This document shows, one piece after another, positions 46,501-52,500 of a stretch of DNA of 64,000 nt (its first letter is position 1; the number at the start of each line of letters is the position of its first letter). The position numbers were made by a program. The stretch is from assembly GCF_057098645.1 (NCBI RefSeq), contig NZ_CM169472.1; one strand, given 5' to 3'.

Positions 46501-49500
46501 CGGAAGTCATTAATCAAAATATGTGCGCCATCCGGCAGCGCTTGCTGATGTAGTCGGATATGGCAGTTGGCATCCACATTGACGATTGCCAGCGAGTGAT
46601 CGCACAAACTCAGCAGCTGGTGGGTTATCTGCGAGGCATCACGCGGTAAGTCGATTAAAATCCACTGGTAACGCCCGCTGGCTTTTAGTTGCTGTAAGCC
46701 GGAGCAAATATCGCTCAGGCGGCGACGGTGGTCTTTTCTTTACAGCAAAATGCGCAAATCGAGCCACTGGCCCGCAGCATTCATACCCTGCGTCGCCAGC
46801 GCGGTAGTGCGATGAAAATCCTCGTGCGGGAAAATACCGCTAGCCTGCGCGCCACCGATGAACGTTTGTTATTGGCCTGCGGTGCAAATATGGTTATTCC
46901 GTGGAATGCGCCACTCTCCCGTTGTCTGACGATGATCGAAAGCGTGCAAGGGCAGAAGTTTAGTCGCTATGTGCCGGAAGATATCACTACCTTGCTGTCA
47001 ATGACCCAGCCGCTCAAACTGCGTGGTTTCCAGAAGTGGGATGTGTTCTGTAATGCCGTCAACAACATGATGAATAACCCTCTATTACCTGCCCACGGTA
47101 AAGGCGTTCTGGTTGCCCTACGTCCGGTACCGGGTATCCGCGTTGAACAAGCCCTGACGCTGTGTCGCCCTAACCGTACCGGCGATATCATGACCATTGG
47201 CGGTAATCGGCTGGTGCTGTTTCTCTCATTCTGTCGGATTAACGATCTGGATACCGCGTTGAATCATATTTTCCCATTGCCTACTGGCGACATTTTCTCA
47301 AACCATATGGTCTGGTTTGAAGATGATCAAATCAGTGCCGAGCTGGTGCAGATGCGCCTGCTTGCCCCAGAACAATGGGGCATGCCGCTGCCTTTAACGC
47401 AAAGTTCTAAACCGGTCATCAATGCCGAGCACGATGGTCGCCACTGGCGACGAATACCAGAACCCATGCGACTATTAGATGATGCTGTGGAGCGCTCATC
47501 ATGATGACCATCAGCGATATCATTGAAATTATTGTCGTTTGCGCACTGATATTTTTCCCGCTGGGCTATCTGGCGCGGCACTCTTTGCGACGCATTCGCG
47601 ACACCTTACGTTTGTTCTTTGCTAAACCTCGTTATGTTAAACCGGCTGGGACGTTACGCCGCACGGAAAAAGCCAGGGCAACCAAAAAATGACTCAATTT
47701 ACGCAAAATACCGCCATGCCTTCTTCCCTCTGGCAATACTGGCGCGGCCTTTCCGGCTGGAACTTCTATTTTCTGGTTAAGTTCGGCCTGTTGTGGGCGG
47801 GATATCTTAACTTCCATCCGCTCCTCAATTTGGTGTTTGCCGCGTTTCTGCTGATGCCCATTCCGCGCTACAGCCTGCATCGCTTGCGCCACTGGATTGC
47901 CCTGCCGATCGGCTTTGCTTTGTTCTGGCATGACACCTGGTTGCCTGGCCCGGAAAGCATAATGAGCCAGGGTTCGCAGGTGGCGGGGTTCAGTACCGAT
48001 TATTTAATCGACCTTGTCACACGCTTTATTAACTGGCAGATGATTGGGGCCATTTTTGTTTTATTAGTGGCTTGGTTATTCCTGTCACAATGGATTCGCA
48101 TTACCGTTTTTGTGGTTGCCATACTGCTATGGCTGAACGTACTTACCCTGGCGGGACCAAGTTTCTCCTTGTGGCCAGCCGGACAACCGACGACCACTGT
48201 AACAACGACGGGTGGTAACGCAGCGGCAACCGTTGCGGCGACGGGTGGCGCACCGGTAGTGGGTGATATGCCCGCACAAACTGCACCGCCAACAACGGCG
48301 AACCTTAACGCCTGGCTGAATAATTTCTATAACGCGGAGGCGAAACGTAAATCGACCTTCCCGTCTTCGCTGCCCGCTGATGCTCAGCCATTTGAACTAC
48401 TGGTGATTAATATCTGTTCGCTTTCCTGGTCGGATATTGAAGCCGCCGGGTTGATGTCGCATCCGCTGTGGTCGCATTTCGATATTGAGTTCAAGAACTT
48501 TAACTCCGCCACCTCCTACAGTGGCCCGGCAGCGATCCGTTTACTGCGCGCCAGCTGCGGGCAGACTTCGCACACTAATCTGTATCAACCGGCAAATAAC
48601 GACTGCTATCTGTTTGATAACCTGTCGAAACTGGGCTTTACCCAGCACCTGATGATGGGACATAACGGCCAGTTCGGCGGTTTTTTGAAAGAAGTTCGCG
48701 AAAATGGCGGCATGCAGAGCGAATTGATGGATCAAACAAATCTGCCGGTTATTTTGCTGGGCTTTGATGGTTCGCCGGTTTATGACGATACCGCCGTGCT
48801 TAACCGCTGGCTGGACGTTACCGAAAAAGATAAAAACAGCCGTAGTGCCACGTTCTACAACACGCTTCCACTGCATGACGGCAACCATTATCCGGGCGTC
48901 AGCAAAACAGCGGATTACAAAGCGCGGGCGCAGAAATTCTTTGATGAACTGGACGCCTTCTTTACTGAACTGGAGAAATCGGGTCGTAAAGTGATGGTGG
49001 TCGTGGTGCCGGAACACGGCGGCGCGCTGAAGGGCGACAGAATGCAGGTATCTGGCCTACGTGATATCCCTAGCCCGTCTATCACCGACGTCCCCGTTGG
49101 GGTGAAATTCTTCGGCATGAAGGCACCACATCAGGGGGCACCGATTGTCATCGACCAACCGAGCAGCTTCCTGGCTATCTCCGATCTGGTGGTTCGCGTT
49201 CTTGATGGCAAGATTTTCACCGAAGACAATGTTGACTGGAAAAAACTCACCAGTGGGTTGCCACAAACAGCACCGGTCTCCGAGAACTCAAATGCAGTAG
49301 TTATTCAATACCAGGATAAACCGTACGTTCGACTGAACGGCGGCGACTGGGTGCCTTACCCGCAGTAAGCACGAAAAAGGCCGCAGAGTTTCACCCCTGT
49401 GGCCTGGTCCGGGCGCAAATTGCCATTACGGCAGCCTGACGCCCGCATGACACGTTACTTCCGTTTGTTCAGCCAGTTCACGATCATACTGGCAAGAATG

Positions 49501-52500
49501 CCAGCAATGACCGGAGCCGCTAAATCATGCCAGAAGGCCATGTCCAGCTCTGCGAGCGTCATATAGCCGCCTGTATTGTAATGACAACGTTTCGCGGCTA
49601 TTCTTGTATTGTTTGGATGCAAGAATGGCCCCCGTGGTGTTGTCAGGTGCATACCTGCAACGTGCGGGGGTTTTCTCTCTCCAGCAACCAATGCCACCAG
49701 GGATTAAGCCCCCGCAACATTGCGCCTCACCGGAACCCTTCCGGCTTGCCGCTAATTTTACGATTGCTTTTTACTGTCAGCACTCGGCAATCTTCCTCAT
49801 TGCGTGATGCCTTCCAGCTTAATTTCTTAATTTGCAATAGTTGCAGTTCATATCCGGGCTGACTCCAGACTGGTAGTGAAATGCGCAATTTTGTAGAATT
49901 GCGCCTCCTCGCGACCTCCCCAGTGAATCTGTTGCCTCATTTTTTACATACTGCGTATTCGACTTCTCCACCTGTTGCGCAAGAGAAACTGGGTTTATTC
50001 ATTTTTGCGAGGCCGACTTCTTTCTGGACAGGACTTTATGCAGCACAACACACTACCGAAACACGATCAGAAATTGCCGTTTACACGCTACGACTTCGGC
50101 TGGGTTTTATTATGCATAGGCATGGCGATTGGTGCCGGAACCGTGCTGATGCCAGTACAAATTGGCTTGAAGGGAATTTGGGTATTTATTACCGCAGCGA
50201 TCATTGCTTATCCTGCCACCTGGGTAGTGCAGGACATTTATTTAAAAACCCTTTCTGAAAGCGATTCCTGTAATGACTACACCGATATTATCAGTCATTA
50301 CCTGGGGAAGAACTGGGGAATTTTCCTCGGGGTTATCTACTTTTTGATGATTATCCACGGGATTTTTATCTACTCTCTCTCCGTGGTTTTCGACAGCGCC
50401 TCGTACCTGAAAACCTTCGGTTTAACCGATGCCGATCTTTCACAATCTCTACTTTATAAAGTCGCTATTTTCGCCGTACTGGTAGCGATTGCGTCTGGTG
50501 GTGAACGATTACTGTTTAAGATTTCTGGGCCAATGGTGGTGGTCAAAGTAGGGATTATTGTCGTGTTCGGTTTTGCGATGATCCCGCACTGGAATTTCGC
50601 CAATATAACCGCCTTCCCGCAAGCCTCAGTCTTTTTTCGCGATGTCCTGCTTACCATTCCATTTTGCTTCTTTTCTGCAGTATTTATTCAGGTACTTAAC
50701 CCAATGAATATTGCCTATCGTAAACGGGAAGCGGATAAAGTACTGGCAACCCGGCTCGCGCTGCGTACCCACCGAATTAGTTATATCACGCTCATCGCGG
50801 TGATACTGTTTTTTGCCTTTTCGTTTACCTTCTCAATTAGCCACGAAGAAGCCGTTTCTGCCTTTGAACAAAATATCTCGGCACTGGCACTGGCCGCGCA
50901 GGTGATCCCTGGGCATATCATTCATATCACCTCTACGGTGCTGAATATCTTTGCCGTACTGACCGCATTCTTTGGCATTTATCTCGGTTTCCACGAGGCC
51001 ATTAAAGGCATTATTCTCAATCTGTTAAGCCGAATTATTGATACCAAGAAAATTAACTCACGCGTGCTGACTCTGGCGATCTGCACTTTTATCGTCATTA
51101 CGTTGACGATTTGGGTTTCGTTTCGTGTATCGGTGCTGGTGTTCTTTCAGTTGGGAAGCCCGTTATATGGCATTGTGTCGTGCCTCATTCCGTTTTTCCT
51201 GATCTATAAAGTCGCACAACTGGAAAAACTTCGCGGATTTAAAGCCTGGCTGATTCTGCTTTACGGCGTTTTGCTATGCTTGTCGCCACTGTTGAAGCTG
51301 ATTGAGTAAACCGGAGCGCATGGCCCCGGTTTTGTGAGTTAACGCTGCGGATTTTCATCCTGATCAACAGCAAAACAAGCTACCAGTTGACCGCCGTAGT
51401 CTTTTAGCTGCGGCTGCAACTGGGTGCAGGGGCCGAAGCGCCGACGACAGCGGGCGTTAAACGCGCAGCCCGGCGGTGGATTCAGCGGGCTTGGCAGTTC
51501 ACCGGTGAGTTTGATGCGCTCGCGGCGATCGTCCGGATTCAGGCGCGGCGTCGCGGAAAGTAGCGCCTGAGTGTACGGATGGCGCGGGTTATTGAAGATT
51601 TGGTCTTTCGTTCCCTTCTCCACGCAGCGGCCCAGGTACATCACCATCACTTCATCAGCAATGTGCTCCACCACCGACAGGTCGTGGGAGATGAAGACAT
51701 AAGAAAGCCCCAGTTCCTGCTGCAAATCCATCATCAGGTTGAGCACCTGTGCACGCACCGAGACGTCCAGCGCGGAGACCGGTTCATCGGCAATCACCAC
51801 GTCCGGGTCGAGCATCAGACCACGGGCAATAGCGATACGCTGACGTTGTCCGCCGGAGAACATATGCGGATAGCGGTCATAGTGCTCGGTTTTCAGGCCG
51901 ACTTTCGCCATCATCGACAGGGCTTTTTCCCGACGCTGTTCTTTGCTTAAACTGGTGTTGATCAGCAGCGGCTCTTCAAGAATTTGCCCGACTTTTTTAC
52001 GCGGATTCAGCGAACCGTAAGGGTTCTGGAAGACAATCTGGATTTTCTGCCGACGCAGCTTCTGCGCCTGCGGATCGTGCTTAAGCAGATCCTGCCCCTG
52101 GTAATACAGCTCGCCGCCGGTGGGCGTTTCAATCATCGTCAGCAACCGACCGAGGGTCGATTTACCGCAGCCAGATTCACCTACTACCGCCAGCGTTTTG
52201 CCACGTTCAAGGTTAAACGAAACGCCGTCCAGCGCCTTCACCAGACGTTCCGGAGCGAACATACCTTTCTTCACCGGATAATGTTTTTTCAGGTCGATAG
52301 CCTGCAACAGCGGTTGTTGCGAGGTGGCCTCTTGCGTACTCATAGTGTCGGCCTCCCGGCATCATCAAGTGGGTAATGGCATTTGGACTGACGCCCGTCA
52401 GCGAGCATATTCAGCGCCGGTTCTTCAGCGCGACATCTGTCAGTGGCATAGGGGCAGCGCGGGTTAAGCAGGCAGCCGTTCGGGCGGTCGTACTTGCCGG

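Follow-up and report, generated by a model that had tools for sequence, protein, structure and literature searches.

The ldrD/rdlD type I toxin-antitoxin locus of an O145:H28-type Escherichia coli chromosome and a possible route of its repression

The type I toxin-antitoxin pair ldrD/rdlD of the long direct repeat LDR-D was reportedly described in E. coli K-12 by Kawano et al. in 2002. Overproduction of K-12 LdrD stops growth and condenses the nucleoid, and both effects are prevented by co-expression of RdlD (PMC4147584, PMC8309996). The two K-12 RNAs form a dsRNA, which is cut by RNase III (PMC7373196), and for rdlD transcription and ldrD repression in general we draw on the K-12 literature only (PMC4147584, PMC7373196). 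The structure of LdrD was solved by NMR for a peptide of 35 amino acids (PDB 5LBJ). Closely related are the ldrA/B/C-rdlA/B/C units, which lie as tandem LDR repeats in the kdsA-chaA interval, with 57% identity between LdrA and LdrD (PMC8309996). More distant relatives in terms of organization are hok/sok (plasmid R1 and chromosomal copies), which likewise combines a small membrane toxin and a long structured mRNA with an antisense RNA aimed at the leader and not at the toxin ribosome-binding site (PMC4147584), the duplex being cut by RNase III here as well (PMC4147584, PMC7373196), and Fst/RNAI-RNAII (par of pAD1). The latter toxin belongs to the same superfamily as Ldr, is likewise a short peptide whose single transmembrane helix is accompanied by a basic C-terminus, and condenses the nucleoid upon overexpression, too (PMC4147584, PMC8309996).

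The window analyzed here is a stretch of 64,000 nucleotides of contig NZ_CM169472.1 (RefSeq assembly GCF_057098645.1). We assign a probability of roughly 0.93 to the reading that the locus between bcsG and yhjV is the orthologue of K-12 ldrD/rdlD in an O145:H28-type chromosome, with a repression that may follow the mechanism proposed below. No evidence against the identification as ldrD/rdlD was found. The earlier note had placed the pair between these two genes, and because the well-known ldrD/rdlD is in its usual place, this finding is correct but ordinary and already known. The core features are as follows.

47689-49368, plus strand: bcsG, from the annotation of a record 100% identical across the 801-base query
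49455-49562, minus strand: ldrD coding sequence, 35 codons and a TAA stop, ATG at 49562-49560, product MTLAELDMAFWHDLAAPVIAGILASMIVNWLNKRK
49611-49676, plus strand: rdlD antitoxin RNA (Rfam RF01813), whose 5' tail of about 16 nt is single-stranded and followed by a long, interrupted, GC-rich hairpin and then a U-tract
50038-51309, plus strand: yhjV, from the annotation of the same record

The peptide of 35 amino acids, with a single hydrophobic helix and a basic C-terminus (KRK) as judged from its sequence, matched the Pfam family PF13940 (Ldr_toxin) over the full profile (positions 1-35 of 35) with 90.2 bits at a cut-off of 27 (E=8.6e-26). It is identical to K-12 LdrD (PDB 5LBJ) at 33 of 35 residues, the changes being F3L and G7D, and the record that is 100% identical across the 801-base query (window 49300-50100) carries the label ldrD under WP_001401193.1. 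The toxins of the ldrA/B/C units are clearly diverged; in a by-eye comparison with LdrA, 20 of 35 residues were identical. The NCBIfam profile search of the peptide gave no Ldr-specific match and only a sub-threshold one to Fst, with 13.8 bits versus a cut-off of 26; the antisense geometry differs from that of Fst as well. A Shine-Dalgarno sequence, AGGCGG (49567-49572), lies 4 nt before the ATG.

On the opposite strand, the RNA matched the Rfam rdlD model over all 66 positions (1-66) with 81.7 bits, well above the gathering score of 50 (E=1.2e-15). The terminator scan flagged 49654-49668 on the plus strand, followed by GGTTTTCTCT, and the minimum free energy (MFE) of the RNA was -30.1 kcal/mol (z=-3.2 versus shuffles). 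Its 5' end is unpaired at nt 1-16 in the Rfam consensus and at nt 1-11 in the MFE structure, while the stems are invariant among the available paralogues, without compensatory changes to score. The 66-nt RdlD is a perfect complement of ldrD leader nt 73-138, and 48 nt separate the ldrD AUG (49562, minus strand) from the rdlD 5' end (49611, plus strand). As the complementarity stops 48 nt from the AUG, the ribosome-binding site is left uncovered. The 35-codon Ldr-family gene on the minus strand and the GC-rich stem-loop with a T-tract in its leader, both proposed from the bare sequence in the earlier note, were thereby confirmed, with peptide and RNA each resembling their expected family.

The surroundings agree with this assignment. 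In the curated MG1655 annotation the order is bcsG, ldrD (minus strand, b4453), rdlD (plus strand, b4454) and yhjV, with a geometry identical to the window, including the 48-nt spacing. K-12 strains shared 96.8% nucleotide identity over the 801 bases with the same synteny, and the order bcsG-ldrD-yhjV-dppF is kept with high nucleotide identity. The Rdl hairpin is identical to that of K-12, whereas the Rdl 5' tail and the mRNA loop differ at approximately nine positions. The 386-nt locus was found 100% identical in 26 RefSeq records, of which all serotype-labelled ones are O145. Among the complete E. coli genomes, 5,425 of 5,426 carried a related ldr unit; together they contain roughly 22,800 ldr-related matches, with up to 12 in one genome.

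The whole unit probably spans about 49375-49760, comprising the ldrD -10 box, a 186-nt leader, the coding sequence, the 3' UTR and the terminator. The interval of 49455-49700 given previously pointed to the right locus, but its limits were those of a mechanical ORF.

49755-49760, minus strand: putative ldrD -10 box, TAAAAT (K-12: TAGAAT), with a probable transcription start at about 49747-49750
49563-49748, minus strand: ldrD 5' leader, about 186 nt, within which lie the Rdl target (49611-49676) and, as Shine-Dalgarno sequence, AGGCGG (49567-49572)
49375-49404, minus strand: ldrD intrinsic terminator, stem GGCCACAG/CUGCGGCC and then UUUUU, from the terminator scan and the consensus fold
49576-49604, plus strand: putative rdlD promoter, TTGTAA (49576-49581), 17-nt spacer, TATTCT (49599-49604), read from the sequence

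The similarity between D-type and A/B/C-type units starts exactly at the ldrD -10 hexamer; no convincing -35 box was seen by eye upstream of TAAAAT. A sigma-70 promoter scan of 49300-50100 returned nothing above the threshold of 9, and the promoter elements given here, read by eye, are weaker. The putative rdlD promoter ends 6 nt ahead of the Rfam 5' end at 49611 and was not listed by the scan because its 8 of 12 consensus matches fall below that threshold. All 15 ldr units in the comparison have the same two hexamers, and the adjoining base 49575 varies. The terminator stem differs from that of K-12 by one A-C mismatch at 49400, which none of the other 14 units shares.

Compared with the ldrA/B/C units, the architecture is the same and the leader is almost invariant, while the coding sequence is strongly different. 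Both UTRs are near-identical and more conserved than the coding sequence between the paralogue types, including a predicted helix that joins the initiation region to the 3' UTR. Differences concern the Rdl apical loop and a 1-nt indel ahead of the Shine-Dalgarno sequence, which alters the frame of the leader ORF relative to the toxin. Three further elements may be relevant for repression.

49607-49627, both strands: hypervariable patch; on the mRNA side the 13-nt loop (49607-49619) of a hairpin whose stem is invariant, on the Rdl side nt 1-17 of that RNA and the 4 nt before its start
49553-49588, minus strand: initiation region of ldrD translation, with Shine-Dalgarno sequence and AUG; the MFE structure and the RNAalifold consensus both pair it with the 3' UTR
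49412-49445, minus strand: 3' UTR element, of which 49419-49445 complements the initiation region and UGCGCC (49412-49417) is predicted to pair with GGCGCA (49721-49726) near the 5' end

Among ten D-type copies, variation was seen in 11 of the 21 columns of the patch and in 31 of the 367 columns outside it; Fisher's test gave p=1e-6 for a span that was chosen post hoc. In the predicted fold, the patch falls on the unpaired 5' tail of Rdl and, in the mRNA, on the hairpin loop. It is tentatively possible that this sole fast-evolving part of a near-invariant ldr/rdl unit, a 13-nt loop complementary to the Rdl tail, may decide which Rdl silences which ldr mRNA. Strict insulation, with a distinct loop in every copy of a genome, was considered and rejected; ldrB and ldrC of K-12 share the patch.

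The duplex of initiation region and 3' UTR was calculated at -44.1 kcal/mol, compared to -22.2±3.7 kcal/mol with a shuffled 3' UTR (0 of 1000 as good), and K-12 ldrD, ldrA and ldrB are predicted to form this pairing too, at -41.6 to -42.0 kcal/mol. The full ldrD mRNA reached an MFE of -173 kcal/mol (z=-7.1), and the consensus fold of the 15 units retains both this helix and the 5'-3' helix. Only one of 101 predicted pairs showed a two-sided change and the paired columns are nearly all invariant, so that covariation is uninformative on the fold because the paralogues are too similar. Truncating the 3' UTR in silico hardly moved the unpaired probability of the Shine-Dalgarno sequence and AUG (0.36 to 0.41); without a clear opening there, the fold-back lock is something that we infer.

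According to the mechanism we propose, the single-stranded 5' tail of Rdl would first contact the mRNA at the 13-nt hairpin loop, from where pairing would propagate through the GC-rich hairpin. The resulting duplex would be cut by RNase III and/or keep the ldrD start from opening, by blocking a rearrangement or the translation of a leader ORF on which the opening depends. As long as the mRNA is full-length, its complementary 3' UTR element would additionally close the Shine-Dalgarno sequence and AUG, and the short 5'-3' helix would reinforce the closure, similar to the fold-back lock of hok mRNA. A 5'-3' fold-back and a closed initiation region are thus predicted for ldr as for hok/sok, whereas 3' processing and activation are features of hok/sok. 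There is no sequence homology between the two systems, and the D-type ldr units do not conserve an overlapping leader ORF of the mok type: their candidate frame runs on into ldrD without a separate stop, and in ldrB and ldrC it is broken.

This last difference bears on the strongest competing explanation, translational coupling alone. In the 'ldrX' proposal of Gerdes and Wagner, whose definition we reconstructed from secondary reviews, a leader ORF running into the ldrD start has to be translated for the ribosome-binding site to open, and Rdl blocks the leader ORF as Sok blocks mok. The proposal is related in reviews (PMC4147584), which rate the model as unconfirmed (PMC4147584, PMC8309996). 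The ldrA/B/C-type units offer a classic coupling layout, with an upstream ORF ending in a UGA that overlaps the toxin AUG (AUAUGA) and a candidate UUG start inside the Rdl-complementary region. However, in the window and all D-type copies the 1-nt indel puts the upstream frame in frame with ldrD, leaving no separate leader ORF, and its translation would yield an N-terminally extended LdrD. The upstream frame also crosses the hypervariable patch with freely changing amino acids, and a 25-aa leader ORF (AUG 49720, stop 49643) ends before it reaches the start of ldrD and carries a frameshift in ldrC of K-12. Taken by itself, coupling appears rather doubtful to us.

With lower probability still, the O145 allele is attenuated or decaying. 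G7D and the terminator A-C mismatch are each unique to the window allele among the 15 units, the other D-type copies carry G at position 7 with the exception of one S, and with G7D two acidic residues precede the transmembrane helix; on this reading the locus may therefore no longer function as a toxin-antitoxin pair. However, the ORF, the Shine-Dalgarno sequence, the -10 box, the Rdl promoter hexamers and the Rdl hairpin are all intact, the identity across the 26 RefSeq records gives no sign of decay, and the Pfam score still amounts to 90 bits. Family members naturally differ at position 7, where G, S, A and D occur, and L3 is the usual state outside K-12. Altogether, decay seems improbable; the published toxicity on overexpression is that of K-12 LdrD.

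That the true product is the 80-aa ORF (49455-49697, minus strand, GTG start) is hardly conceivable: the in-frame extension is open in 10 of 10 D-type copies (80 or 91 codons), but Pfam homology is confined to residues 46-80, the last 35 codons being exactly those of MTLAELDMAFWHDLAAPVIAGILASMIVNWLNKRK, A/B/C-type units have the extension in another frame or with stops in it, its residues change freely across the hypervariable patch, the Shine-Dalgarno sequence sits 4 nt ahead of the internal ATG, and curated MG1655, PGAP and the solved peptide all give 35 amino acids. We rejected it as a gene, and the earlier warning that an ORF track over-extends the toxin was justified. The accompanying remark that automated callers easily miss the small ORF holds for the rdlD RNA, which is absent from the PGAP records checked and present in curated MG1655, but not for the toxin, as PGAP called ldrD at 35 amino acids in each of the records that we inspected.

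The value of the locus as a discovery is small, with ldrD/rdlD characterized since 2002, found in practically all E. coli genomes and its toxin annotated by PGAP. In practice, it is useful to know that the PGAP RefSeq annotations checked carry no rdlD RNA and that an uncritical ORF track stretches the toxin to 80 amino acids. A minor scientific point comes from the comparison of 15 units, which yielded the hypervariable target loop and the complementarity between 3' UTR and start region; both can be tested, and both bear on how Rdl represses ldrD without covering the ribosome-binding site. If true, loop specificity together with a 3' UTR element closing the ldrD start would provide a concrete, testable model of this repression.

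In the mechanical ORF list, 49455..49697 on the minus strand is an ORF of 80 aa ending in the 35 residues MTLAELDMAFWHDLAAPVIAGILASMIVNWLNKRK. This 35-aa peptide matched the Pfam Ldr_toxin profile (PF13940) over its full length (positions 1-35 of 35, E=8.6e-26, 90.2 bits at a cut-off of 27 bits), and 33 of its 35 residues are identical to K-12 LdrD, the only Ldr peptide whose structure has been solved (PDB 5LBJ), the differences being F3L and G7D. An NCBIfam search of the peptide gave only a sub-threshold match, to the Fst family. On the opposite strand, an Rfam scan of the whole window at the gathering threshold placed rdlD (RF01813) at 49611-49676 (+), covering model positions 1-66 of 66 (81.7 bits at a gathering score of 50, E=1.2e-15). 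The RNA 49611-49676 has a predicted folding energy of -30.1 kcal/mol, z=-3.2 relative to dinucleotide shuffles, and its 3' end was reported by the terminator scan as a terminator-like stem followed by GGTTTTCTCT. Neither the toxin match nor the rdlD match is due to chance. Both bear out the earlier note, which had proposed an Ldr-family toxin ORF on the minus strand and had read a GC-rich stem-loop with a T-tract opposite it as the Rdl antisense RNA, with an Rfam search as one check. The same scan returned five other RNAs above the gathering score:

1155-1186, minus strand, shuA/chuA 5' UTR thermoregulator
10858-10929, plus strand, ES205 sRNA
16708-16821, plus strand, GadY
57593-57673, plus strand, naRNA4
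57769-57842, minus strand, tRNA

The thermoregulator is consistent with a pathogenic, non-K-12 strain.

Of the 5,426 E. coli genomes that are complete, 5,425 gave a match to an 801-base query spanning the locus; identity was 100% in O145 strain RM9872 and 96.8% in K-12 derivatives, and the features annotated beneath the query are bcsG, ldrD and yhjV. Gene order in RM9872 is bcsG, ldrD (35 aa, WP_001401193.1, minus strand), yhjV and dppF, and the layout of a K-12 MC4100 derivative is identical, so that the placement of ldrD between bcsG and yhjV agrees with annotation in both. In curated MG1655, the ncRNA rdlD (b4454) lies on the opposite strand 48 nt past the start codon of ldrD (b4453), and the comparison with K-12 that had been suggested gave the same 48-nt gap in the window (49562 to 49611). 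By its layout, gap and sequence identity the locus is orthologous to LDR-D of K-12. Across its 386 nt (49375-49760) the unit has a 100% match in 26 RefSeq records, of which all that carry a serotype label are O145 (six have no serotype in the name), and the next-best record reaches 98.2%; on this identity the window is an O145:H28-type chromosome. The expectation that automated callers easily miss the gene failed for the toxin, as each record inspected has the 35-aa ORF called by PGAP, the NCBI annotation pipeline, but held for the RNA: the rdlD feature is absent from the PGAP-annotated RefSeq records checked (L001, L002, L003, L007, L008), and among the records checked only curated MG1655 carries it (L004:1637-1700).

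Copy number at the bcsG-yhjV site (window 49369-50037) differs by strain: the window, K-12 and O157:H7 each have a single ldr copy there, an ST131 strain has three in tandem (L003:1619-2692) and PapM-32-1 has four (L008:2115-3671); ldr-related matches per genome range from 1 to 12 (median 4). In the ST131 strain yhjV is followed by a hipA-type type II toxin gene pair (L003:4456-5730), whereas dppF directly follows it in the window, K-12 and O145. Outside the toxin-antitoxin unit, the region upstream of yhjV holds a perfect 7-bp inverted repeat (GCGCAAT-N8-ATTGCGC, 49883-49904), the same in K-12 and ST131, which may be a regulator-binding site.

Fifteen ldr units were compared: the window, K-12 ldrA, ldrB, ldrC and ldrD, the single O157:H7 copy, three tandem ST131 copies, four tandem PapM-32-1 copies and two EC2641 copies. 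The anatomy, partly putative, is as follows:

49760-49755, minus strand, putative ldrD -10 TAAAAT (K-12: TAGAAT); similarity between D-type (LDR-D kind) and A/B/C-type (ldrA/B/C-like) units begins exactly there
49572-49567, minus strand, ldrD Shine-Dalgarno sequence AGGCGG
49562-49560 (ATG) to 49457-49455 (TAA stop), minus strand, ldrD CDS, read from sequence
49404-49379, minus strand, ldrD terminator, U-tract to about 49375 (terminator scan, consensus fold)
49576-49581 (TTGTAA) and 49599-49604 (TATTCT), plus strand, putative rdlD promoter with 17-nt spacer, read from sequence

From the putative -10 box, ldrD transcription would begin near 49747-49750 and the leader would be about 186 nt long; a clear -35 box is not apparent, and a promoter scan of 49300-50100 gave nothing above threshold. 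The putative rdlD promoter matches consensus at 8 of 12 positions, below the scanner threshold, and ends 6 nt before 49611; both hexamers are invariant in all 15 units. An A-C mismatch interrupts the terminator stem at 49400 in this allele alone among the 15.

The 80-aa ORF was rejected as the true gene, in line with the earlier view of it as an over-extension of the toxin. Its Pfam match is confined to residues 46-80, and the residues predicted for the extension vary freely over a hypervariable patch. In each of the ten D-type copies the upstream frame stays open, for 80 or 91 codons; in the A/B/C type a 1-nt indel immediately 5' of the Shine-Dalgarno sequence shifts it relative to the toxin, and stops break it in most such copies. 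The open frame in D-type copies is best explained, on this alignment, as near-invariant RNA sequence and not as coding.

With regard to the RNA, both UTRs are far more conserved than the 35-codon CDS between D-type and A/B/C-type units (window 49375-49760 against the K-12 ldrA/B/C record, L005), the reverse of the usual pattern, which argues for RNA-level constraint. The inferred 374-nt ldrD mRNA has a minimum free energy fold of -173 kcal/mol (z=-7.1), which shares three elements with the RNAalifold consensus computed from the 15 units: a 5' hairpin, a short 5'-3' helix (GGCGCA 49726-49721 with UGCGCC 49417-49412), conserved in ldrA/B/D, and a long helix between the initiation region (49588-49553) and the 3' UTR (49445-49419). 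The latter duplex reaches -44.1 kcal/mol versus -22.2±3.7 for shuffled 3' UTRs (0 of 1000 as good), and is equally strong in K-12 ldrD, ldrA and ldrB. Two-sided changes occur in 1 of 101 predicted pairs, and paired columns are nearly all invariant, so covariation is silent; deleting the 3' UTR in silico made almost no difference to the predicted Shine-Dalgarno/AUG accessibility. A hok-like fold-back lock, in which 3' UTR pairing would hold the ldrD start region shut, is therefore something we infer and not a result.

In 49607-49627, 11 of 21 columns vary across the ten D-type copies, compared with 31 of 367 elsewhere in the unit (Fisher p=1e-6, patch boundaries chosen post hoc). The patch coincides with the 5' tail of Rdl, and the rest of the leader is near-invariant. 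Its core, 49607-49619 (9 of 13 positions variable), forms a 13-nt hairpin loop on an invariant stem in both mRNA folds, and on the plus strand comprises the Rdl start site and first nine nucleotides. This would fit an initial recognition site that gives each Rdl its own target; a simple lack of constraint fits the variability equally well. Variants are mosaic across copies, the window sharing its patch with the third PapM-32-1 copy. Strict insulation by a distinct loop per copy is argued against by the patch common to K-12 ldrB and ldrC.

In K-12, excess LdrD causes fast growth arrest and nucleoid condensation, RdlD co-expression blocks these effects, and RdlD overlaps the ldrD 5' UTR without reaching the ribosome-binding site; the reviews treat the mechanism as unsettled and a leader ORF, ldrX, modelled on mok of hok/sok, as an unconfirmed proposal (PMC4147584; PMC8309996; PMC8167048). 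The rdlD/ldrD overlap yields dsRNA roughly 21 nt long that depends on RNase III, and an rnc mutant slightly stabilises both RNAs (PMC7373196). Translational coupling through ldrX would suit A/B/C-type units, where the upstream frame ends in a UGA overlapping the toxin AUG (AUAUGA). However, in every D-type copy, the window's included, the corresponding frame runs on into ldrD in the same register, leaving no separate leader ORF of this kind. Another leader ORF (25 aa, 49720-49643) ends before ldrD begins and carries a frameshift in ldrC; purely mok-like coupling is thus weakly supported in D-type units.

The ldrD/rdlD locus is already known, and Ldr family membership, the Rfam rdlD match and K-12 LDR-D orthology, all the defining features that sequence can test, are present here. 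Its differences from K-12 are, on the alignments, allelic: L3 in place of F3 (L3 being common outside K-12), D7 (codon 7, 49543; this allele only among the 15 units), the Rdl tail and mRNA loop, the -10 hexamer and the terminator mismatch. Toxicity and repression are predicted from the K-12 work. For the family, specificity and silencing may be explained by the variable loop together with the complementarity of the 3' UTR to the start region, a tentative reading to which we give roughly three chances in ten.
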